DNA from: Escherichia phage BAU.Micro_ELP-22
Direction: 5' to 3' (one strand)
DNA length: 64,000 nt
Sequence record: OR699282.2
In this document: in pieces, positions 3,725-46,492 of the stretch
Layout: every line of letters begins with the position of its first letter
How positions within the stretch are numbered: the first letter of the stretch is position 1
Notes under the pieces: generated by a model
What the model was told of the DNA's origin: nothing
What the model saw: the letters and a program-made list of their open reading frames with translations, nothing else
The model's database searches: none
Made by a program: the position numbers and the translations under genes

Positions 3725-3732
3725 TATAAATA
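3725..3732 (+). promoter_or_regulatory. T4-type late promoter box TATAAATA
   Basis: Exact TATAAATA about 35 nt upstream of the first large structural gene (3767). Confidence 0.4.
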
Positions 3733-3766: not shown

Positions 3767-6463
3767 ATGTCAAAGAAAATATATGGTGGCTTAGATGTCA
3801 CACATAATGTGACAGTTAATGGTAAAAGAACAATTCAAGGAATAAATGAACAAGTTTTTGATTCCAACGGTAACTTGGAATTAGATACTTATTCCAGAGA
3901 TGAAGTACTAGATATAGTAAGTATGATGCCAATCTCCCATTATGGTTCACAAAACTATCTACCTGCGGGTGTTTCTGGGGATTTCAATGGTGCATCAGAA
4001 AACCAGTCACAACGTAGAAATAAAATTTTATTAGAAAACGATGGTACACTAGTACTTTTACGTAGTGGGACAAACGGTAGTGTTGAGGGATTATTTTATT
4101 CATATTTGGCTAACGCATTATCAGTTGATGACATGAGCCGTACAATTAACACCAGTCGTCAATACAAGCCTGGGTTTTTTGGTTCAAATAGAGTTGCGAT
4201 TGGTTTATACAATACTGATCCAAATATTTTACTCGGTAGATATATTGATACTTCTAACAGTACTAATGGTTTGTTCATATCAATTACCAATGGTACATTA
4301 GATGATAAATTGCATACTGGTTTTTTCGTTAACCAAGCAGATATATCACCTGAAGGTGGTATTGAATATGCTATGATGGCAGAAGATGGTTCTATATATG
4401 TTTTTAACGTACTTAATGAAAATAACCAACTACAATTAGTTGTTGTTAAAGTTGTTTATAATATAAGCAATGGTACTTATACTGCAACTCGAATTACTGG
4501 ATGGACTACTAAAACATTTTATAACACAACTTATTCTGCACAAAATAATATGGTTATTACTAATCAGGTAACATCAACAAATATTGCTGATAAACCTTAT
4601 GTGTATGTTCCACAAAATCTACGTGGTATTGGGATTTACATGACATCAATTGATTTATATGTTGCACAGCAGCCAGGAACGCAGAATTTCCGCTTTAGAA
4701 TGAACGGGGACGCTTGGTTTACAATGGCAACATATAATACACGTCCACAGCATAGTTACAGTTTTGTGTTCAATATGAGTACTAAACAATGTACATTAGA
4801 TGCAGGTAACGATATTGGTTCATATCAAGCACCATTAGTTATAACTAATACTGGTTCGGCATTAGTTCCTACTGGTAACGTTTTAAATAACGATCCATTG
4901 TATAACCATGCAAATGCAAGAAACATTTATAGTTCATATTTTTATTTGAATTCTGGTGAAGCTTTTTGTACTGCATGTCCAAACTTAGCAGAACCATTAC
5001 TTATGCAAAAAGCTAAGTTTCCTATTCAAATAGTTTATAGTATGCTGAATGTCCGTGCTGTACTTTCTACTGACTTCAAAGGTGGTATAGTTCGCCCGTC
5101 TTTTGGTTCAGCGGTTGGTTCATTTATTAATGGTGTAGAATTACTACCAGATAACAGTACTAAACAATATTCACGTGCATCAGGTAGTGGTGGATTTAGA
5201 CCATCATATGCAGTTCATAAAAGTACTCCTAATTTTACATTTAAATCATTATCTTTAGGAACAATACAAGGTTATGAACCTACAGTTGAACGTGCTAATG
5301 TTGATGATAATGCAAATAATAGAATTTTTATTAGTAGTATTTCTGGGTCAACTGTCACAACCAATGGTGGTATTTTTATGGTTGGGCAACGTTATTCACA
5401 ATCATTATCCTATGATAAAAACTTAAATGGCACAGGAATTATAAGCGTTACACAATCAGTACTGGACAATTTTAGAAATACTGAATATGCCAAAGTTCTA
5501 AGTGATTGGAATTTATCAGCACAAGCATACCGTGATATGACACTATTTGTTCCACAACAAACAGACATTCCAGCTTTTGTTATGTTGAGTACAATTACTA
5601 ATGATTATAGAAACTATATTAGAATTGCTGAAGTTAATGTCAATACTAGAGTTGGTAATATTACATCTATTACATTTAAGCGTTTAGTACTTGAGAATAC
5701 GTATGGTGATAACTTTACACCAACTGGGAATGGTTCGATTGCATCTTCTTCTGTTGGTTTGACAATATATGATGGTGGTTCATTCTACTTCATTGGTGGT
5801 TCTGACCCATTATCACATCCAACAATAGGTAATACTGCAACTCATCAATTTAGAGCATATGTAACTAAATCAACTGCACAATTTACAAGTTTTATAATTA
5901 CTGGTTCTCATGCCAGTTATGAACAAGGAAGTCAACCAGCAGCATTACCTGGTATTGGTTTTGGAATTTTTGAACCAATTGATTACTCAAATAAAATGAC
6001 ATTCAAAAAATATGGAACAACGATTGCAGACTATAATAACTGGACTGCACAAGGTAGCCCAATTAACGTAGTATCCCAGGACGTTGCTCAAGGGTTTATT
6101 GTATATTTTACAGAGGAAACACCAGTTATTCTTTCAGGTAAGTCATTTTCACTACCAGTTTCAAATATTGATTTGAGAACTATTAAGTCTAATCCAGCAA
6201 ATACAACATTTTATGTATATGTTAAATTGGAACAAGGATTGGCAAACTATTACATAACTACTGATGTTATTTCTGAAACAGGAACAACTGCATATAATAT
6301 TTTTTGGATAGGTACAATTCAAACTAATGCAATTCAAATCGAAACAATTAATATACAAAAACGTTCCCGTTTAGATATATTTGGTGCTTCACTTGAATCA
6401 GCAGGTTCATCGTTCCCAGTTAGCTACGGTCTACCATCACAAACAGGAACCATAAACTGGTAA
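3767..6463 (+). CDS. large virion fibre/adhesin-like protein, paralog 1 (898 aa)
   Basis: Long Ser/Thr/Asn/Gly-rich ORF; shares an N-terminal motif (RDEVLDIVSMMPISHYG, LRSGTNGS) and a C-terminal module (VVSQDVAQGF...KSNPANTTFY...SSFPVS.G.PS.TGT..W) with 6475 and 7079. Confidence 0.6.
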   Translation: MSKKIYGGLDVTHNVTVNGKRTIQGINEQVFDSNGNLELDTYSRDEVLDIVSMMPISHYGSQNYLPAGVSGDFNGASENQSQRRNKILLENDGTLVLLRSGTNGSVEGLFYSYLANALSVDDMSRTINTSRQYKPGFFGSNRVAIGLYNTDPNILLGRYIDTSNSTNGLFISITNGTLDDKLHTGFFVNQADISPEGGIEYAMMAEDGSIYVFNVLNENNQLQLVVVKVVYNISNGTYTATRITGWTTKTFYNTTYSAQNNMVITNQVTSTNIADKPYVYVPQNLRGIGIYMTSIDLYVAQQPGTQNFRFRMNGDAWFTMATYNTRPQHSYSFVFNMSTKQCTLDAGNDIGSYQAPLVITNTGSALVPTGNVLNNDPLYNHANARNIYSSYFYLNSGEAFCTACPNLAEPLLMQKAKFPIQIVYSMLNVRAVLSTDFKGGIVRPSFGSAVGSFINGVELLPDNSTKQYSRASGSGGFRPSYAVHKSTPNFTFKSLSLGTIQGYEPTVERANVDDNANNRIFISSISGSTVTTNGGIFMVGQRYSQSLSYDKNLNGTGIISVTQSVLDNFRNTEYAKVLSDWNLSAQAYRDMTLFVPQQTDIPAFVMLSTITNDYRNYIRIAEVNVNTRVGNITSITFKRLVLENTYGDNFTPTGNGSIASSSVGLTIYDGGSFYFIGGSDPLSHPTIGNTATHQFRAYVTKSTAQFTSFIITGSHASYEQGSQPAALPGIGFGIFEPIDYSNKMTFKKYGTTIADYNNWTAQGSPINVVSQDVAQGFIVYFTEETPVILSGKSFSLPVSNIDLRTIKSNPANTTFYVYVKLEQGLANYYITTDVISETGTTAYNIFWIGTIQTNAIQIETINIQKRSRLDIFGASLESAGSSFPVSYGLPSQTGTINW

Positions 6464-6474
6464 AGGATTACATA

Positions 6475-7062
6475 ATGGCATATAAAATAAGAGCAGACCT
6501 TAAGGCAATGCAACAAGTTACAGTTCAGGGTAAAAGTACTGGTCTTGGTGTATTAGGTAATAATATGACTTATTACCCAACAAATTCAAATGGGGAATGT
6601 ACATTCCCCTCTATTACCAAAGATGAAGTTAACTTTATTGTCAATGGATTACCACTTACACAATACGGAGAATTGTATGATGACGCTAGTCTAAATATTA
6701 CTTCATCAGGCTATAGTCTTACATTTAACAGACAGATACCATCATTTATTGGTGGTTATCTTTATAAATTTCCAGCAGTTTCTATTTTTGCTTCAACTGT
6801 TTCATCTGGAACACAAACACAATACGTATATGCAACGTTAGTTCTCGGTGAACCAATTTATAAAATATCACCAACACAAATACAAGAATCTGAAATTATA
6901 ATGTTTATTGGTACTCTGACCGTTGGTACAAGTGGTATTACAAATATAAACATTAATAAAGTATCCAGATTTAGTACATATAGACCTAGTGTTACACAAA
7001 AAGGTTCTTCATTCCCAGTCAGTACTGGAAAACCATCAGAAACTGGTACAATTGGTTGGTAA
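6475..7062 (+). CDS. short paralog (195 aa) carrying the N- and C-terminal modules of the flanking fibre-like proteins
   Basis: TKDEVNFIVNGLPLTQYG near the N-terminus and ...RPSVTQKGSSFPVSTGKPSETGTIGW at the C-terminus. Confidence 0.5.
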   Translation: MAYKIRADLKAMQQVTVQGKSTGLGVLGNNMTYYPTNSNGECTFPSITKDEVNFIVNGLPLTQYGELYDDASLNITSSGYSLTFNRQIPSFIGGYLYKFPAVSIFASTVSSGTQTQYVYATLVLGEPIYKISPTQIQESEIIMFIGTLTVGTSGITNININKVSRFSTYRPSVTQKGSSFPVSTGKPSETGTIGW

Positions 7063-7078
7063 ATTAAGGAAAAGAAAG

Positions 7079-9808
7079 ATGTCATCAAAACGAATTATAG
7101 GAAGTGCCGAGATCCTTGGGAACTTGGCAATTGGACAAAGGTACGCTATGCGTACTTTTAATGGAACCTCACCGAATGCCAATACTGGAATTGTTCAATA
7201 TCCAATATATAAGCGTTCAGAAGTTCAAAGTATTTTAGATATGTTGCCTATATCACGTGTAGGAGAAATGGATTACTTACCATTAAACGTAAGTGGGTCG
7301 TATGAAGGTGCTACACCTATGTCAAGTGACCAAGTAGTTCAGCCAACAATTATTGAAGATGATGGAACCGCCGTTGTTCTGCGTAGCGGAACCAATGGTA
7401 GTACTAAAGGTTTTTATTATTCATTTATACGAGAAATCAGAAATATAACTATGATTTCACAAGAAAGTGTTATTTCAACCAATTCAATGTATAAACCTTC
7501 AATTATGAGTAGTACTGAAAATATTAAGTATTTTATTGGCTCTAATGGTTATGAGATGCTTGGATGTTTAAGTACTGAAGATAATTATATTTTTACTATA
7601 ACCAATGGCACATTTAACGAAATATCACATATTCATGCTAAAGTGCCAAGTACTTCTTTTGGTAATGATATGCCAATATATACACATATTGTTGGGACAA
7701 AGGTTTATATTTGGTGTAAAGATAAAAGTGTTTCTAATTTAGGATTAGCACTTTCAATTTATACAGTAGAGCTAAGTGATGTGAAAGCAAGCTCAATGGC
7801 ATCATTAACAAAAGTTACTGGGTTATCAGGTCAAACTGTTCGAAACACAAGTTATTCTGCATCTAATAACATAAGAGTGTTCGATAAATTATATAGTGTT
7901 GGTACTAGCTCGGATTCATTATTCGAAGTTACATCACCAGTATCACGTGTAGAATTTTCAGACTATACAGACTTTAACATTCAAGCCAACGTTAGTCCTG
8001 ATTTATCAAAAATACGTGTAACTTTATATCCAACACATCGAATGGTTACACCTTTGTATATTTCAACAGTTTATGGTACTGGAATCAGTTTTGTTTATAA
8101 TATAAACTCAAAATCTATGTCACTAGATGGTAGTGCTCGTGCACCTGCAACTGTTTCATATAATAATGGATTTCAAGTTTCTAACCCATTTGAAATTAAT
8201 ATGGTCAACTTCACAGGGACAACTGCTGCTGGTGTATTAGGAAACGCAGGTGGTTTATGTCAAACTAAAGATGGTTTGGTATTTGCATCTAAATTTAGAT
8301 GGAGTTCAACTGAATTTTATGGTCTACAACGATATAAGGTTAGTGGTACACCGTTTGATTCATGGGTTGCCAGTACTAGAACCGCAAGTAACGTTATAAA
8401 TGCAAACGTTTTACCAGTTTTTGGTAGTGCTGTTGGTGCAAACCTTTTAGGTGTACGTTTCATCGATAATAGAAAAATATTATTAGCATGTTCTGGTACG
8501 TATGATGATGTAACATATAATTATAATAATACTGTTTTTTCTGAAATAGGTTCACAACCAACATATCAATATAACTCAGTTCAAAATAATACTACATTAA
8601 ATGGTTTTGCACCACAATCTAATCGTAAACAAATAGGCGATGATTTTACATACACTGCTATGATTTCTCTTGTTGATACCGATGGTAGTGTTAGATGCTA
8701 TGGAACATCATTCATTGAAGGTGTATATAAAACAAGTGGTGGATTATTAAATCCAGATACTTTAGAATTTGATGAAACATATACAATAGAACCAACGGTA
8801 TTAGAATCATTAAAACAAGATATTTTTGCTAATATAGGAAACTCTGGCATTGTTGGTACACTATCTGGACAAATTGTATTATATTATGTACCTGATAATA
8901 CTTTTTCTAAATCCATCGCAGTAGTTTCAGCATATAATCTTAACAATAACCAAGGTTATGCAATCTATGCCGAAGTTGATGTTGTATTATCTGGAACTAA
9001 CATAACTTCAGCTACATTGGTGAGTACTAGATATGAAACACTGAGTTCTGTTACAGGAATTATTACTGAAGCATATATGAAACGTTGTACTGGTCTAACA
9101 GTTGCAAAATATTCAGGATTTGGTTACATTGGTGTTGATGCCGTTCATCAATTTTCACAACCAGGTAATGCACAATTTAAGATGATGATAGCTAAAACAG
9201 TAGATGGTGTCATAACATCAAATCGTTTTTTATCATCTAGTTACATCCAACTTGGTGCAGCATATCAACATGGTGTTATTCCTGGTGTTGGTTTTGGATA
9301 TTACAATTTTCAAGATTCTGACTATCAAACCAAATCTGTATTCAGCGTTTTTGGTACAACATCTGCTGAAATGGATGGTTTAATTAGTGGAAATGGTAGC
9401 GTTAAAGAAAAGATTGTGGTAGTATCACAAGACGTTGCACAAGGATTCTCAGTGTACTTTACACGTGAAGTTCCGGTGTTTTTAGGTGGAATTTTCGACA
9501 GACTACCTATACAAAGTGTTGATTTAAGTACTGTAAAAAGTAACCCAGCTAATACTACGTTCTATTTGTATATACAAATGAACAGGAATACTAAGAAAGC
9601 GTCATATGTTATTAGTACTGAAACAATTGATGAATCTTTAACTAGCACTTACATTGGTAAGATAGTTACTGGAACTTCAGGAATAACTTCAATTGATACA
9701 GAAAAAGTAACTCGTTTTTTGACATATCGTCCAAGTACAACGAAACGTGGTTCAGCGATACCTGCCAGTACTGGTGTACCATCAGGTCCAGGTACACGTT
9801 GGAAATAA
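7079..9808 (+). CDS. large virion fibre/adhesin-like protein, paralog 2 (about 909 aa)
   Basis: ORF track starts at 6989 overlapping the previous gene; start moved to Met 7079 with AGGA RBS. Shares KRSEVQSILDMLPISRVG, LRSGTNGS and the C-terminal VVVSQDVAQGF...KSNPANTTFY...TGVPSGPGTRWK module. Confidence 0.6.
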   Translation: MSSKRIIGSAEILGNLAIGQRYAMRTFNGTSPNANTGIVQYPIYKRSEVQSILDMLPISRVGEMDYLPLNVSGSYEGATPMSSDQVVQPTIIEDDGTAVVLRSGTNGSTKGFYYSFIREIRNITMISQESVISTNSMYKPSIMSSTENIKYFIGSNGYEMLGCLSTEDNYIFTITNGTFNEISHIHAKVPSTSFGNDMPIYTHIVGTKVYIWCKDKSVSNLGLALSIYTVELSDVKASSMASLTKVTGLSGQTVRNTSYSASNNIRVFDKLYSVGTSSDSLFEVTSPVSRVEFSDYTDFNIQANVSPDLSKIRVTLYPTHRMVTPLYISTVYGTGISFVYNINSKSMSLDGSARAPATVSYNNGFQVSNPFEINMVNFTGTTAAGVLGNAGGLCQTKDGLVFASKFRWSSTEFYGLQRYKVSGTPFDSWVASTRTASNVINANVLPVFGSAVGANLLGVRFIDNRKILLACSGTYDDVTYNYNNTVFSEIGSQPTYQYNSVQNNTTLNGFAPQSNRKQIGDDFTYTAMISLVDTDGSVRCYGTSFIEGVYKTSGGLLNPDTLEFDETYTIEPTVLESLKQDIFANIGNSGIVGTLSGQIVLYYVPDNTFSKSIAVVSAYNLNNNQGYAIYAEVDVVLSGTNITSATLVSTRYETLSSVTGIITEAYMKRCTGLTVAKYSGFGYIGVDAVHQFSQPGNAQFKMMIAKTVDGVITSNRFLSSSYIQLGAAYQHGVIPGVGFGYYNFQDSDYQTKSVFSVFGTTSAEMDGLISGNGSVKEKIVVVSQDVAQGFSVYFTREVPVFLGGIFDRLPIQSVDLSTVKSNPANTTFYLYIQMNRNTKKASYVISTETIDESLTSTYIGKIVTGTSGITSIDTEKVTRFLTYRPSTTKRGSAIPASTGVPSGPGTRWK

Positions 9809-9813
9809 ATTTA

Positions 9814-9842
9814 AAGCTCGTCTATTGACGGGCTTTTCTTTT
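9814..9842 (+). terminator. intrinsic terminator (gctcgtc-tatt-gacgggc + T-run)
   Basis: Stem with one G-U pair followed by TTTTCTTTT after the 7079 gene. Confidence 0.45.
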
Positions 9843-9853
9843 ATGTGTATAAT
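9825..9853 (+). promoter_or_regulatory. sigma70-like promoter (TTGACG-17-TATAAT)
   Basis: -35 TTGACG embedded in the terminator stem, 17-nt spacer, -10 TATAAT; AGGAGG RBS before the 9876 ATG. Confidence 0.35.
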
Positions 9854-9875
9854 TGAATAAAAATAGGAGGAAATT

Positions 9876-10442
9876 ATGGTCAAAACTTTATTACCACCAC
9901 CAAAACGTCACAAAATCAAAGAAATGAAAGAACAACGTACATTAAAGATGTACAACAATTTAGTTAAGTTACTGTGTAAAAGTCCATCGCTCAAAGCAGA
10001 GTTTAAAACTGATGATGACCGTAAAGCACTAATTGAGATGAAATATATGCTCAGTAAAATGTCCTTTTACAAATTTGTAAAAGAATACGCATCTGACCCA
10101 TTTAGTCCTCGTTGGAGAGCCAAACCAAGAGAGTATTTTTACGGTGGTTCATATACAGATCGCATTCAAGACACAGTGATGGGAGTTGAATTTGAAATCG
10201 ATTATGAGCCGAATGGTGAGGAAATCTTGCAGATTGAGAAACGTTTACCAAGTGAAGAAGAAATTTATGTTTATGCAAGAAAACTTTCAACTTACAGTTC
10301 AAGAATTACTCTAGGCAATTTAGATTCATTAATTATTTTCTATACACGTGTTGGTGTAGATAAGATGGTAACTAAACTCAATGAACTTTCATTACAACAA
10401 AAACAGATTAATGCATACAAAGACATTACTGATTTATACTAA
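9876..10442 (+). CDS. hypothetical protein, tandem paralog family member 1
   Basis: Shares D-x-D-R-K-x-L-I-E-x-KY-x-LSK and a downstream W/Y-rich segment with 10449 and 10967. Confidence 0.5.
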   Translation: MVKTLLPPPKRHKIKEMKEQRTLKMYNNLVKLLCKSPSLKAEFKTDDDRKALIEMKYMLSKMSFYKFVKEYASDPFSPRWRAKPREYFYGGSYTDRIQDTVMGVEFEIDYEPNGEEILQIEKRLPSEEEIYVYARKLSTYSSRITLGNLDSLIIFYTRVGVDKMVTKLNELSLQQKQINAYKDITDLY

Positions 10443-10448
10443 TGAGGA

Positions 10449-10970
10449 ATGGATATGTTTTTTGGATCAGTTGGAAAACAAAACAGTACTTTAATTTGGC
10501 ATGAAATTATCTTTAAAATTATATCTAAAAGCTACTCACTAAAGGATATTATCACCACAGATAATGATAGACGTATCCTGTTAGATGCAAAATATAAATT
10601 GAGCAAACACCCTTTACTTTCTTTAATCATTGATTACGTTAATGATTATGAATCTAGTCGTTGGAAGTGGGAAGACGGCGGTTTATTTCGTGGAAAAACA
10701 TTCTACGGTGCGGAACGATATGTTTTCAGTGATGCATCAAATGGCGTTAAGTTTGTTATTAGAAACTTTAACTCCAAAGAAAATGATTATCTTGAAAGTG
10801 GAGTGAAAGTATATATCGATAATAATAGCAATGTCCTAACATATGACGAATCACTAATTATGTTACAAATAATGCGTGGTGTTGAAGGTGTAAGAAACAA
10901 CCTTACTAAATTGAAAATCCAGCAAAATGATATACATAATAGACAGAAAATTAAGGGTTTATATAAATGA
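10449..10970 (+). CDS. hypothetical protein, tandem paralog family member 2
   Basis: TDNDRRILLDAKYKLSK motif aligning with neighbours. Confidence 0.5.
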   Translation: MDMFFGSVGKQNSTLIWHEIIFKIISKSYSLKDIITTDNDRRILLDAKYKLSKHPLLSLIIDYVNDYESSRWKWEDGGLFRGKTFYGAERYVFSDASNGVKFVIRNFNSKENDYLESGVKVYIDNNSNVLTYDESLIMLQIMRGVEGVRNNLTKLKIQQNDIHNRQKIKGLYK

Positions 10971-11476
10971 TTTCATTTTTCAAAAAGAAACAAAAAGTTG
11001 ATGAAACAGGATTAGAATCGTTTCTATGGACTCTTATCATCAAAAAAAGTCCATTGATAAAAGAATATGCTATCAATGATGCTAATAGAAAAACTATCAT
11101 TGAATACAAATACGAATTATCAAAATGTGATCCAATCGTTTATCACTTTGCGAAGTACTGTTCAAAAAATTTATCGGATATCACAATAGACCATGAGTCA
11201 GTTCCAATGAGCTTTCCTTATGGTGATTGGGTAGATACTTTTGATATTTTTGATGGGTCCAATGGATTCAGTTTCTTTTACTCGTCAAATAAAGCAAATG
11301 TTCGTATTAAAACAGAGATAGGTTGGGCACAGCATAGCTCAAATAAAGAAGATTATAATTTACTAGCTGACGTATACCGAAGTGTGAAGAATTCAAAGGA
11401 TATTGATGAAAGAATTAAAAAGCAAAATCGTATTTCTTTATCACTTGAAACATACAAGTCAAAGTATGGTGGTTAA
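10967..11476 (+). CDS. hypothetical protein, tandem paralog family member 3
   Basis: NDANRKTIIEYKYELSK motif; 4-nt overlap with upstream gene. Confidence 0.5.
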   Translation: MISFFKKKQKVDETGLESFLWTLIIKKSPLIKEYAINDANRKTIIEYKYELSKCDPIVYHFAKYCSKNLSDITIDHESVPMSFPYGDWVDTFDIFDGSNGFSFFYSSNKANVRIKTEIGWAQHSSNKEDYNLLADVYRSVKNSKDIDERIKKQNRISLSLETYKSKYGG

Positions 11477-11478
11477 CG

Positions 11479-11880
11479 ATGACTACAGTTGATGATATCT
11501 ACAGCACTATACGCAATATGAGTACAGATAGAAAAGTATTTGGTGATAAAGAAAAATCTAAGTGTTATGGTATTGATTCTTTTGATATAATTTCTTATGA
11601 GTACAACACGAGTGGAAATAGTTCACTGAATATCGTCTGCCCTCGTGACCCAGAAAATAATTTTATGTATGTTGAAATTAATAATGATGGAATATTTTTT
11701 ACAAAAGTTTTTAAAGGTGGAATTAATTACGAACCAATTGAATGTATGAATGAAGAAACTTTCTTTCAAGAAGATACAATTATCAATTTAGGTTTTAGTT
11801 TTGATGATTATAAAACATTAGAACATGACTTTAATCGTTATTATAACGGTTTCTTAAAGGAGTTAACAATTTATCTATGA
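11479..11880 (+). CDS. hypothetical protein (133 aa)
   Basis: ORF in the same array; no clear motif. Confidence 0.4.
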   Translation: MTTVDDIYSTIRNMSTDRKVFGDKEKSKCYGIDSFDIISYEYNTSGNSSLNIVCPRDPENNFMYVEINNDGIFFTKVFKGGINYEPIECMNEETFFQEDTIINLGFSFDDYKTLEHDFNRYYNGFLKELTIYL

Positions 11881-13109
11881 ATAACCAATATGTTGAACAA
11901 ACAATAGTGAAACACTTGGCTGGGTCACAAGCCTACGGAACCAGTACACCTGAAAGTGATACTGATTATCGTGGTATTTTTCTTGCTAATAAAGAATTTA
12001 TTCTTACGCCATTCTATAAGGTCAAAGAAGTAGCTGATAAAAATGAAGAAGATACTAAATTCTATGAGTTAAATCAGTATTTAAAATTATACACTGAAGC
12101 CAACCCTAATATATTGGAATCACTATGGGTCGATCCAGAACACATTGTAGAAAGTACTGAGATTTATGACTATCTTCGTTCATTTAACCAAAAACTTCTT
12201 AGTTCCAAGATTGCATTTTCATACACTGGATATGCATATAATCAGATTAAGCGTATGACAAATCATCACGGTTGGATGGATAAAGAGCGTATTGCTGAAA
12301 AACGATTAAATGAGATTTTAGAAGAACACCCTGTCGATGAGGTTCTTGCGTGGATGTATGATTCATTCCCACAGTATCTTGTTGAACGTTTAGATACATC
12401 CAACTTACATCCATTTAATGCTAAAAAGATTGATTTTGAAAAATATATGCGTGATACGTCATTGCAGTTAGTTTCGAAAAATCCATTAAAGCAATATCAT
12501 TTTGTAAGATTAGTGCATAACTACACTACTGAAAAAATTCTTGATCGTGATTTCAATTTATTGAATTTTAATAATGGTTATGAACTAATTCATTACGGAG
12601 AAAACATTTTTGCGATTATTAAAAATCCGAATGAAAGCACTATCAACGGTGATGGATCATTGCGTTATTTTTCTAAAGAGCGTAGTACTGAAGAGTTGAA
12701 AACCAAACCAGAACTAATTGTCAAATTTAACGAAAAAGAATATCAGGAAAATAGTGAGAATAGGAAAAGTTATCATAAATGGAAAGAAAATCGTAATGCC
12801 AAACGTGCTATTTTAGAATCACAACACGGATACGATTGTAAACATGCTATGCACACAATCCGACTTTTGAATAGTGCAGAAGAAGCATTACAAAGTGGAA
12901 TTATTCAAGTTAAACGACCAGATGCACAAATGTTGATGGATATTCGTAATGGTAAATGGAAGTATGAAGAAGTATTAGAATATTTCGATGATAAAGTACA
13001 ATACATTCGTGATGTTCTATATAAGAAATCAGTACTTCCTAAAAAACCAAACATCAAGTTAGCATCAAAAATTATCATTGATATTAGAGAAATGCAATGG
13101 TATAAGTAA
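11877..13109 (+). CDS. Pol-beta-superfamily nucleotidyltransferase (410 aa), specificity unknown
   Basis: N-terminal HLAGSQAYGTSTPESDTDYRGIF = G-S-x9-S-D-x-D signature of minimal nucleotidyltransferases; further acidic residue in LWVDPE. Confidence 0.5.
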   Translation: MNNQYVEQTIVKHLAGSQAYGTSTPESDTDYRGIFLANKEFILTPFYKVKEVADKNEEDTKFYELNQYLKLYTEANPNILESLWVDPEHIVESTEIYDYLRSFNQKLLSSKIAFSYTGYAYNQIKRMTNHHGWMDKERIAEKRLNEILEEHPVDEVLAWMYDSFPQYLVERLDTSNLHPFNAKKIDFEKYMRDTSLQLVSKNPLKQYHFVRLVHNYTTEKILDRDFNLLNFNNGYELIHYGENIFAIIKNPNESTINGDGSLRYFSKERSTEELKTKPELIVKFNEKEYQENSENRKSYHKWKENRNAKRAILESQHGYDCKHAMHTIRLLNSAEEALQSGIIQVKRPDAQMLMDIRNGKWKYEEVLEYFDDKVQYIRDVLYKKSVLPKKPNIKLASKIIIDIREMQWYK

Positions 13110-13186
13110 CATATACAAGTGTAATGGTACTAAAAATGCCATTACACTCAATAAATACTCAATATAAATTAACACAAGGATTAAGT

Positions 13187-16606: not shown

Positions 16607-16635
16607 TTGACATAGAAAAAGTAATTATGTATAAT
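16607..16635 (+). promoter_or_regulatory. consensus sigma70-type promoter (TTGACA-17-TATAAT)
   Basis: Exact -35 and -10 hexamers with 17-nt spacer immediately after the 13816 stop. Confidence 0.5.
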
Positions 16636-16636
16636 C

Positions 16637-16667
16637 AGAGAACTTCATATGGAGTTCTCTTTTTTTA
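16637..16667 (+). terminator. intrinsic terminator (agagaact-8 nt loop-agttctct + TTTTTTT)
   Basis: 8-bp perfect stem and T-run; overlaps the predicted transcript start of the promoter above. Confidence 0.5.
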
Positions 16668-44416: not shown

Positions 44417-45397
44417 ATGGCTAAAAAAATTAATGAAGCACAAGTTAAAATCGATATCGCAGGTTTAGAATCTGATGATTTGGAAACTCTATCACGTATG
44501 TTAGCTCTTGCTGGTCAAGCTGAACGTCAAGACCCAGTAGTTGCTGCTCCAGTACCATCTATGGGGTCTATGACTCCATCTCTTCCACCTATTGCTCCAC
44601 TAGATCTCGATTCTATTGGTGCTGAAGAAGAAATTGGTGGAATTGAAACTTCAGTTGAAGACCCACTAGCAGCGGCAGTTGATGATCTTTCCGCTGATGT
44701 TGGTGATTTTGGTGCTGACACAGATGAAGTTAGTATGGATGCTGAATTTTCAGAACCAGGTGTAGAAGGTGAAGAAGATTTTTCTCTTGACCTTAGTGGT
44801 CAACCTCAACTAGAATCAGTTGAAGAAGACGATGAGGAAGAAGAGGAAATTATTGAAGAAGAATTCGATTTTAGTCGTATGCTATCCCTTGCTGGTATTA
44901 ACGAAGAAGAAGACGAAGATTTTTCCGTAGAGGGTAATCCTGCTACCGATAAAGAAATGAAAGATACCCAATTTCTACCAGATCTAAGTATCTCTGAAGA
45001 TGAAGAACCATCTAACAGTACTGATTATGGTCCATATGAAACAGAAGCTGATGCCGTTCGTGATGGTCAACTAAAGACTAATGGTGTTGAAGGTGACCAT
45101 TTTGTTGTAATTGCAAAAGGCAATCAATTTTATTGGAGACGTGTTGTAGATGAAGATCTTGACAATCGTCCAGAACCTGAGTATTATGATAATGAAGGGA
45201 ACGAAAATCGTGTTCATAAATTTGAACCAAAATTCCCAGGCACTGCATTAGGAGATAACCCACTAAATGTTAATGAAAGTGAAGAAGATGATTCACCTGA
45301 AGGTAACATTGACTTGGAAGATGATTCTGATGAAGAAGTAGAAGATATTTTTGAAAGTCTCCAAGAAAAATACAAGAAATTTTTAGGAGACAAATAA
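44417..45397 (+). CDS. highly acidic protein (326 aa) with internal repeat
   Basis: Asp/Glu runs (EEDDEEEEEIIEEEFDF) and a repeated LSRMLALAGQAERQD / FSRMLSLAGINEEED motif. Confidence 0.5.
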   Translation: MAKKINEAQVKIDIAGLESDDLETLSRMLALAGQAERQDPVVAAPVPSMGSMTPSLPPIAPLDLDSIGAEEEIGGIETSVEDPLAAAVDDLSADVGDFGADTDEVSMDAEFSEPGVEGEEDFSLDLSGQPQLESVEEDDEEEEEIIEEEFDFSRMLSLAGINEEEDEDFSVEGNPATDKEMKDTQFLPDLSISEDEEPSNSTDYGPYETEADAVRDGQLKTNGVEGDHFVVIAKGNQFYWRRVVDEDLDNRPEPEYYDNEGNENRVHKFEPKFPGTALGDNPLNVNESEEDDSPEGNIDLEDDSDEEVEDIFESLQEKYKKFLGDK

Positions 45398-45398
45398 T

Positions 45399-45794
45399 AT
45401 GCAATATAATTATCGTGAACTAGTTGAAGCGTTAGACGAAATTACCGGAAGAGATGAAGACGAAAGTTTTTCAGTTGAAGTTGAATCCGATGTTGTAGCA
45501 GTTGATGTTCTTAAGGATATTACCAAATGTCTTATTGATATTGTTGATAAGATTAAATCTGGTGAAGACCAAAAAGAAATTGTAGATAAACTACAAAAAG
45601 CCTGTGACATTTTGTCTGACATTCGATATAATGATGAAAGTACTGAAGTTGCTGATGAAGAAGTGTTGGAAGCCATTGCAGGTTGTTTTGGAACTGAAGG
45701 TATGGGACCAACAATTGACAAAGAAGGCGTACAACACTATAATGAGCCTGGTGCACCATCTTATGCTGCACGTCAAGGTTTTGTTGGAGACTAA
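45399..45794 (+). CDS. hypothetical acidic protein (131 aa)
   Basis: ORF coupled to upstream stop. Confidence 0.45.
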   Translation: MQYNYRELVEALDEITGRDEDESFSVEVESDVVAVDVLKDITKCLIDIVDKIKSGEDQKEIVDKLQKACDILSDIRYNDESTEVADEEVLEAIAGCFGTEGMGPTIDKEGVQHYNEPGAPSYAARQGFVGD

Positions 45795-45797
45795 TAT

Positions 45798-46178
45798 ATG
45801 TTTCCAGAACCATCACATAACAGTACTGAATATCAAAATAATGTACTTTCCAAAGTTAGGGAAGTACATGAATCAGATTCAGAAATAACAGACCGTATGC
45901 TTCTGATGTCAATTTTTGAAAATTTCAGAACTGGCGGTGGTTTACGTCTTAGCAAGTTTGGGTATGGAATTTGTAAAGAAAATAATCTTTATGAATTTAC
46001 AAAAATCCCCTTGCAAAGAGAATTTAAAAGTTCTATAATGTTTACATCACTTGACAGAATATGTACTTCACCTTATTATGTTGAAGGTCAGTACATATAT
46101 CTGACAGATGCAATGATAATAACTGAATTAACATTGTGTTGTGATGATTTTAAACAGTTATTTTCTATTCATATGTAA
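45798..46178 (+). CDS. hypothetical protein (126 aa)
   Basis: ORF; no motif. Confidence 0.4.
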   Translation: MFPEPSHNSTEYQNNVLSKVREVHESDSEITDRMLLMSIFENFRTGGGLRLSKFGYGICKENNLYEFTKIPLQREFKSSIMFTSLDRICTSPYYVEGQYIYLTDAMIITELTLCCDDFKQLFSIHM

Positions 46179-46201
46179 GAAAAATGAATTAAAAATAAAT
46201 G

Positions 46202-46229
46202 TTGACAAGATAGAATGATGTGATACAAT
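46202..46229 (+). promoter_or_regulatory. consensus sigma70-type promoter P1 (TTGACA-16-TGaTACAAT)
   Basis: Exact -35, 16-nt spacer, TACAAT with upstream TG. Confidence 0.55.
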
Positions 46230-46295
46230 AAGCATCAGACATAAAGTTTTCAAGCGACACAAGATGTGAGTTTGAAAAAAAAAGAAAAAAAGTGA

Positions 46296-46323
46296 TTGAC
46301 AAGTTGAAACGATGTGATATAAT
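46296..46323 (+). promoter_or_regulatory. consensus sigma70-type promoter P2 (TTGACA-16-TGaTATAAT)
   Basis: Near-duplicate of P1 (TTGACAAG...GATGTGATATAAT) 94 nt downstream. Confidence 0.55.
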
Positions 46324-46492
46324 GTTCACATCAAGACAGCAAAGAGATTTACCTTTTAAACACACGGATGATTCATGAAGTAACAAAGGAACTGATAAGT
46401 TAAATTATTTTAACACAGTTCCTTTACTTTTGCCCACGGATTGGCTATAATAGAAACTTAAACGATTTTATCCAACAAAAGGAAATATATAC

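Follow-up and report, generated by a model that had tools for sequence, protein, structure and literature searches.

Tandem paralogs heading an RlaP operon in an Asteriusvirus jumbo coliphage, and their possible roles

Paralogous gene families are common in the Rak2-like jumbo phages (PMC3622015), and the genes considered here are three tandem paralogs, termed A1, A2 and B, located at 9876-11476 in a window of 64,000 nucleotides (nt) of Escherichia phage BAU.Micro_ELP-22 (OR699282.2). The window designates the whole stretch of DNA that was analyzed, and its positions are used throughout. Known relatives are the GenBank "hypothetical proteins" 121Q gp502-504, phAPEC6 gp321c-319c, RaK2 ORF001/002 and GAP32_146/148/150/151. 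The genes are thus already deposited, and they are clustered in the PHROG database as families of unknown function, phrog_18641 and phrog_7868, of which A1, A2 and B are direct members and which are listed apart there and united here. Neither family is named in any paper found in our literature searches; the fEgEco12 paper does not mention g242 and g245-g247, and the paralog genes are not taken up in the Sharanji, RaK2 and phAPEC6 papers.

Several described systems can be compared with this locus. The RlaP enzymes, one of which is encoded next to the paralogs, add one or two nucleoside monophosphates to the 3' ends of damaged RNA, and the restoration of heavily damaged tRNAs requires them (PMC12776372). 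Jumbo-phage RlaP is predicted to work alongside RNA ligases, CCA-adding enzyme and Thg1 against host anticodon nucleases (PMC7824862). The small early anti-defense proteins of phages (Acr, Ocr, Tad and Acb types) resemble the paralogs in their small size, sigma-70 early-type promoter and lack of detection in virions, as well as in their extreme divergence, modular exchange and neighboring counter-defense enzymes (here RlaP, Thg1 and a DNA methyltransferase). The tail-fiber assembly chaperones (T4 gp38/gp57A and Mu/P2/lambda Tfa type) are also small, not detected in virions and encoded directly downstream of fiber genes, whereas the paralogs differ from them by the absence of sequence similarity, the terminator boundary, the other promoter class, the RNA-repair gene in the operon, and a copy number and divergence that do not track the fibers. 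The "head plus stalk" proteins XRCC4, PAXX and SAS-6 are also listed among the closest known systems.

Between 9500 and 12200 the window matches Escherichia phages UB and JP4 with 100% identity, and 121Q, PBECO4 and phAPEC6 with 97-99%. The latter three are Asteriusvirus ("Rak2-like") jumbo myoviruses of ~350 kb, and these identities mark the window as Asteriusvirus jumbo coliphage DNA. As far as literature searches show, the unification of the two PHROG families, the exclusion of a fourth open reading frame (ORF) from the family, a fold without solved relatives, an overlapped terminator and promoter, and a three-gene recombination module are undescribed.

One family with two subfamilies

The sequence-only reading had proposed three to four tandem paralogs of unknown function. 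The ORFs that it listed, 9876, 10449 and 10967, are present (188, 173 and 169 amino acids, aa), and the motif that it named was found in all three, as DDDRKALIEMKYMLSK, DNDRRILLDAKYKLSK and DANRKTIIEYKYELSK. Their similarity is significant both in formal alignment and in profile searches. By BLASTP, A1 and A2 align over their full length with 30% identity (E=5e-15), and B matches A1 (E=1e-4) and A2 (E=4e-4) only in the N-terminal 40 residues, or motif region. Profile matches place A1 (E=4e-79) and A2 (E=3e-85) in phrog_18641 and B in phrog_7868 (E=7e-58), with cross-matches at 2e-11, 6.5e-6 and 4e-5, among them an end-to-end match of A2 to phrog_7868 (2e-11) and a match of B to phrog_18641 (4e-5). 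A family hidden Markov model (HMM) matches the three ORFs with E values of 5e-44, 1e-51 and 1e-47, and these alone over the 64-kb window. By these alignments and profiles, A1, A2 and B are genuine ancient paralogs, two of subfamily A and one of subfamily B. The true start of A2 is probably ATG 10455 rather than 10449, because a ribosome-binding site (RBS), GAGGA, lies at 10444-10448, the homologues begin with MFF and the JP4 annotation starts at this codon.

A profile search covering 1.84 billion representative proteins gave 36 matches at E < 1e-3, of which about 31 are true family members, all single-domain proteins of 148-197 aa. The longer candidates P0032 (1934 aa, a eukaryote-like CAP-domain repeat protein) and P0041 (1302 aa) were judged from their sequences to be spurious motif matches. 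All 31 collected members match phrog_7868, and 26 of the 31 match phrog_18641 as well, a pattern by which the two entries, separate in PHROG, are one family with two old subfamilies. The shared motif is part of the best-conserved portion of the family (KS..L and D..R..I..KY.LSK, plus D95 and an invariant tyrosine near the C-terminus). Among the close relatives, ten polar residues are conserved, namely K27, S28, D38, R41, K48, Y49, S52, K53, D95 and Y172; over the 31-sequence alignment Y172 is invariant, and S28, L31, R41, K48, S52 and D95 are nearly so. An aromatic-rich segment downstream of the motif had also been described, and one is present in each protein. It is positional and not a conserved motif, however, since it corresponds to residues 71-90, the least conserved part and the one with the lowest model confidence; aromatic residues make up 11.7-14.2% of the three paralogs overall.

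The number of paralogs is three and not four. The next ORF (ORF4, 11479-11880) is ruled out as a member by an hhalign probability of 0.07% (E=0.7), the lack of a family-HMM match, its own family phrog_22376 and a pI (isoelectric point) of 4.4 versus ~9. It is strongly acidic (net charge -11) and is 60-62% identical to its RaK2, Muenster and JNE01 versions, where the paralogs are only ~20-37% identical. Its 17 homologue clusters all derive from metagenome assemblies (longest contigs to ~350 kb) and carry no Pfam domain, and a PDB sequence search with ORF4 gave no match. The extra ORF004-type gene of RaK2 and JNE01 is likewise unrelated to the family (hhalign probability 0.8%).

An AlphaFold model of A2 (173-aa reading from 10449, 31-sequence alignment) has a pLDDT (predicted local distance difference test) of 88.9 and a pTM (predicted template modeling score) of 0.79. 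Its N-terminal part is a bundle of four helices (17-65), followed by a small antiparallel sheet (72-123) and a C-terminal helix of 40 residues (132-171). Read together with the alignment, the model puts the conserved residues in one helix of this bundle and at the ends of helices. Most members have a pI of ~9 and Lys/Pro-rich N-terminal tails, and the family is predicted to comprise small, mostly basic alpha/beta proteins. A Foldseek search of the A2 model against viral predicted structures (BFVD) returned only uncharacterized family relatives from Yersinia phages. Sequence searches of Pfam, NCBIfam, PADLOC and PDB, with single proteins and with all 31 members separately, gave nothing consistent.

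The five-gene operon and its promoter

From their spacing, A1, A2 and B open an operon of five tightly packed genes, which continues with ORF4 and an RlaP-family nucleotidyltransferase gene (Table 1). The gaps between the five genes (9876-13109) are +12 (or +6), -4, +2 and -4 nt, with RBSs, and the starts of B and of the RlaP gene overlap the stops of A2 and ORF4, respectively (ATGA in both cases). The operon corresponds to genes 502-506 of 121Q, and its first four ORFs (9876, 10449, 10967 and 11479) to 121Q genes 502-505 and phAPEC6 gp321c-gp318c, all labeled "hypothetical protein" in every record examined. The paralogs lie upstream of RlaP on the same strand in Asteriusvirus (including JNE01 and A4), RaK2, Muenster, GAP32, Yersinia phage fHe-Yen9-03 and metagenome contigs L014 and L015. 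Thg1 is interspersed among the paralogs in GAP32 and the Yersinia phage, where a DNA methyltransferase and RlaP come after them. At metagenome locus L006, no RlaP match was recorded.

The placement of the paralogs between virion "fiber-like" proteins and the nucleotidyltransferase, as first read, is correct, and their own promoter (9825) and strong RBS (AGGAGG at 9865-9870, 5 nt before the A1 ATG) were both recovered. The promoter, TTGACG-17-TATAAT, agrees with the sigma-70 consensus at 11/12 positions and is one of only 13 window sites with at least 11/12. It overlaps an intrinsic terminator hairpin located within the 67-nt gap upstream of A1, with a predicted RNA fold of -14.4 kcal/mol (z = -7.0). 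TTGAC and a -10 element at 16-17 nt are kept in 10 of the 10 related loci examined, and the promoter overlaps a terminator in eight of them (fEgEco12, JNE01, A4, three metagenome contigs, GAP32 and the Yersinia phage). In Muenster, terminator and promoter are separate, side by side. The copies were folded one by one, as differing loop lengths prevented a register-exact DNA alignment. Equivalent hairpins in A4, the three metagenome loci, GAP32 and the Yersinia phage have energies of -13.5 to -16.5 kcal/mol, with different, compensating stems, and identity in the coding DNA past the element falls as low as 44-54%. A second promoter-like site is present downstream of the overlapped element in GAP32 and the Yersinia phage.

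By its motifs, the operon is flanked on both sides by units with T4-late-type promoter motifs encoding virion proteins. The upstream unit is headed by TATAAATA, which occurs once in the 64 kb versus 11 occurrences expected, and the downstream unit by ATAAATA, found at nine window sites versus 39 expected. Outside positions just ahead of virion-protein genes, the window shows strong avoidance of the late-type motif, in keeping with a promoter of T4-late type. Promoter classes of this kind are described for the related phage CBB, whose structural genes follow ATAAATA and whose presumed early genes follow RpoD-like promoters (PMC5259590). The paralog operon would therefore be an early host-sigma-70 unit between two late units, because its promoter class differs from that of the flanking units. 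No Asteriusvirus transcriptome paper was found in our literature searches. An inverted repeat without a T-run, GTGTAATGG ... CCATTACAC (13117-13148), directly follows the RlaP gene, ahead of the late-type motif, and may be the 3' end of the operon or a processing site.

Table 1. Features of the paralog operon and its surroundings (window positions unless another locus is named)
Feature	Position	Strand	Description
Paralog A1	9876..10442	+	188 aa, pI 9.1, subfamily A (phrog_18641); orthologue of 121Q gene 502 and phAPEC6 gp321c
Paralog A2	10455..10970	+	171 aa from ATG 10455 (173 aa from 10449), pI 9.2, subfamily A (phrog_18641)
Paralog B	10967..11476	+	169 aa, pI 8.7, subfamily B (phrog_7868); orthologous to RaK2 ORF002
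ORF4 (acidic, unrelated)	11479..11880	+	133 aa, pI 4.4, phrog_22376; operon member, not paralog
RlaP-family (PF10127) Pol-beta nucleotidyltransferase	11877..13109	+	Last operon gene; Pfam E=3.1e-16, phrog_388 E=9.8e-77
Intrinsic terminator hairpin	9813..9836	+	10-bp stem, loop TATT, T-run; ends upstream late virion-protein unit (3767-9808)
Sigma-70-type promoter TTGACG-17-TATAAT	9825..9853	+	-35 at 9825-9830 in hairpin loop and 3' arm; -10 at 9848-9853
RBS AGGAGG	9865..9870	+	5 nt upstream of ATG 9876, read from sequence
T4-late-type promoter motif TATAAATA	3725..3732	+	After a terminator; heads upstream virion-protein unit (3767-9808)
Late-type motif ATAAATA	13151..13157	+	Heads downstream virion-protein unit (small protein from 13187, then 13278, 13816)
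Overlapped terminator/promoter element, other loci	L004 6325-6365; L009 7318-7360; L006 7450-7490; L010 4485-4530; L007 5560-5600		In L014 and L015, upstream of first paralog
Shared C-terminal motif of fiber-like proteins	6400-6463; 6960-7062; 9700-9808; L007 5460-5561		L007: Yersinia phage homologue

Distribution, divergence and exchange

A tblastn search of 50,697 phage records found the family in 36-44 of them, all Escherichia, Salmonella or Klebsiella jumbo phages, and members were additionally detected by the family HMM in Cronobacter phage GAP32 and Yersinia phage fHe-Yen9-03. Ten divergent family clusters that were sampled derive from metagenome assemblies only, with longest contigs from <1 kb to ~350 kb. 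In the searches made here, the family was seen only in Rak2-like jumbo phages and in metagenome contigs of jumbo-phage size. An IMG/VR search for related loci with a 10-sequence alignment returned solely 121Q itself. Asteriusvirus harbors three tandem copies, and RaK2, Muenster and contigs L006 and L014 two each. Contig L015 also has two tandem copies, the second one weak (E=8e-6), and GAP32 and the Yersinia phage have four each, interleaved with Thg1 and a DUF4326 gene.

The sequence-only reading had compared the cluster to rapidly evolving accessory genes, which stands in part: the paralogs have diverged between lineages far more than their neighbors and form an exchangeable module. They are not a fluid or recently expanding array, however, and are under purifying selection. 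Every Rak2-like genome or locus examined keeps at least one A-type and at least one B-type copy. In a neighbor-joining tree the paralogs group by position, indicating positional orthology, and therefore the A1/A2 duplication is older than the split of the Asteriusvirus lineages. The ratios of nonsynonymous to synonymous substitution rates (dN/dS) are 0.04-0.44, with A1 and A2 somewhat more relaxed than their neighbors, which shows the paralog genes to be functional.

The divergence of the three genes is uncoupled from that of the surrounding DNA. Compared with JNE01, the paralogs are only 27-36% identical at the protein level, versus 61-87% for all flanking genes (75% for RlaP). Compared with fEgEco12, on the other hand, the paralogs are 91-93% identical, with a synonymous divergence (dS) of 0.14-0.39, versus 72-88% for the flanks, where dS is >1 or saturated. 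The same holds for DNA identity, which over 9809-11450 is 89-97% to fEgEco12 and 44-54% to JNE01, versus 63-81% and 56-82% in the respective flanks. In a sliding-window profile the mosaic boundaries are sharp and fall at ~9.8 kb (terminator/promoter) and ~11.45 kb (B/ORF4 junction), showing that A1, A2 and B are exchanged as one module apart from ORF4 and RlaP. At least three very divergent cassette types exist in Asteriusvirus, the 121Q type, the JNE01/Turkey5 type and the A4 type.

Possible functions of the paralogs

Mass spectrometry (MS) of the phAPEC6 virion (62 proteins) detected the neighboring products gp323c, gp315c (4.7 kDa) and gp314c, and none of gp316c-gp322c, which include the paralogs gp321c-gp319c and the ORF4 counterpart gp318c (PMC7247149). 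Of the detected neighbors, gp315c and gp314c are encoded in the downstream virion-protein unit. Likewise, gp001 and gp002 are not among the structural proteins given in the main text of the RaK2 paper. The region of the 195-aa and 909-aa genes upstream (window 6475-9808) is almost unannotated in the phAPEC6 record (L005 3964-6771), and the phAPEC6 analysis was therefore unable to score these two proteins. The upstream virion or fiber-like proteins of 898, 195 and 909 aa share a C-terminal motif, GS[SA][FI]P[VA]S[YT]G.PS..GT..W (Table 1).

We tentatively favor, with a probability of about 0.4, that the paralogs are early intracellular binding proteins of a phage conflict or host-takeover program, possibly forming A/B hetero-oligomers, and not fiber chaperones, because of their promoter class, absence from the virion proteome, basic charge, extreme divergence, modular exchange and RlaP/Thg1 context. 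To judge from the promoter class, the operon would be transcribed early by the host sigma-70 RNA polymerase. The proteins would stay inside the infected cell and would act by binding rather than catalysis, as searches of Pfam, NCBIfam and PDB turned up no signature of an enzyme family. In the A2 model, the long C-terminal helix would probably be the means by which A/B hetero-oligomers form. The targets would be host or defense factors, within the counter-defense program to which the RNA/tRNA repair partners in the operon would belong, and the paralogs would be neither tail-fiber parts nor fiber-specific chaperones. A number of points speak against this proposal. The early assignment is drawn from promoter class, and transcripts reading through the upstream terminator could express the genes late as well. 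Failure to detect the proteins in virions is negative evidence, since proteomics often overlooks components of low copy number. The adjacency to fiber genes, conserved across genera, still allows a morphogenetic role. Finally, the conserved polar residues could form a catalytic or ligand-binding site, which makes binding without catalysis insecure. A more specific version, in which the family is a new fold acting as a hetero-oligomeric early counter-defense or host-takeover factor and traded among Rak2-like jumbo phages as a self-contained three-gene specificity cassette, appears doubtful at present; one possibility within it is an inhibitor of tRNA-targeting or other abortive-infection systems that would complement RlaP and Thg1. 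The searches made here found no sequence or fold similarity of the paralogs to characterized anti-defense inhibitors.

Part of the same evidence could also be explained if the paralogs were RNA- or tRNA-binding accessory factors of RNA repair that present or select damaged tRNAs for RlaP (or Thg1 in other genera). They have a basic charge and Lys-rich tails, are linked to RlaP in one operon by overlapping starts and stops, keep their synteny with RlaP in RaK2, Muenster, JNE01, A4, GAP32, the Yersinia phage and two metagenome contigs, and are interleaved with Thg1 in GAP32 and the Yersinia phage; damaged tRNA is moreover the substrate of RlaP (PMC12776372). We nevertheless regard this as unlikely, as RlaP homologues are present in 199 phage records versus ~45 for the paralog family. 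Many of the 199 belong to groups that yielded no family member, and Vequintavirinae, Vibrio phages and Bacillus phage G are among the RlaP carriers. The family does not accompany RlaP wherever the latter occurs: with the family HMM, no member was recovered around RlaP in the loci of Raoultella phage Ro1 and the Vibrio jumbo phage 2.275.O. The recombination module, in addition, ends at the B/ORF4 boundary and leaves RlaP outside, and an identity of 27-36% beside 75% for RlaP is not what one would expect if the paralogs assisted a conserved enzyme whose tRNA substrates are conserved too. The position immediately downstream of fiber or spike genes in every genus examined would rather suit non-virion assembly chaperones or adaptors for the neighboring fiber-like virion proteins that share the C-terminal motif. 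Chaperones are typically absent from virions, in agreement with the phAPEC6 data, and the three paralogs of Asteriusvirus equal in number the three upstream proteins with the common C-terminal tail. However, a conserved terminator and a promoter of another class separate the paralogs from the fiber unit, which speaks against co-transcription, and the divergence of the paralogs is uncoupled from that of the adjacent fiber genes. Nor do the paralogs, at 2-4 copies, vary in number with the upstream fiber genes: the metagenome loci have three fiber-like genes and two paralogs, GAP32 and the Yersinia phage two large genes and four paralogs, and RaK2 ~10 unrelated spikes and two paralogs. In RaK2 and Muenster the paralog slot comes after podovirus-like spikes, and in Asteriusvirus and GAP32 after EL-gp115-like 900-aa proteins. 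With no Pfam, PHROG-annotated or NCBIfam match of the paralogs to known tail-fiber assembly families (Tfa, gp38 and gp57-type), and with the predicted assembly protein of phAPEC6 (Gp220) encoded elsewhere, a chaperone role seems improbable.

It is also quite unlikely that the paralogs are small enzymes or binders of small molecules, such as nucleotide signals, with a site made up of the K-S, D..R and KY..SK residues, D95 and the invariant C-terminal tyrosine. These polar residues do stay conserved in a family that is otherwise only ~20% identical, the A2 model is confident and compact (pLDDT 88.9), and the genes lie in a presumably early operon with nucleotide-handling enzymes. Against this, no similarity to an enzyme or sponge family was found by sequence or by fold in the searches made, and the conserved residues, given their position at helix ends and in one bundle helix, could be purely structural (caps and salt bridges). 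Least probable are low-copy virion components missed by proteomics. The paralogs are indeed embedded between two virion-protein units, and jumbo-phage MS misses low-abundance proteins, the RaK2 analysis having missed four predicted structural proteins. The phAPEC6 analysis nonetheless recovered even the 4.7-kDa neighbor gp315c and not the paralogs, whose promoter is of sigma-70 and not late type and whose operon is shared with an RNA-repair enzyme.

The cluster is now defined as one family with two old subfamilies, with a confident predicted structure without a solved relative, a transcription unit and a recombination module. If the counter-defense role that we favor were true, the three divergent coliphage cassettes (121Q, JNE01 and A4 types) would be natural allelic variants for target mapping, with a bearing on the host range of phages being proposed for therapy. 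If the paralogs were only lineage-specific accessory proteins, the finding would be an ordinary one. None of the new points is surprising in kind.

Other promoter-like sites are present elsewhere in the window. Six near-consensus sigma-70 sites (at least 11/12) lie within 1.1 kb at 45159-46296, several of them inside ORFs and two in the 46179-46492 gap. At 16607-16660, at the end of a 929-aa tail-protein gene, a terminator-like hairpin (16637-16660) comes immediately behind a perfect TTGACA-17-TATAAT, an order of promoter and terminator that is the reverse of that at 9813-9853.

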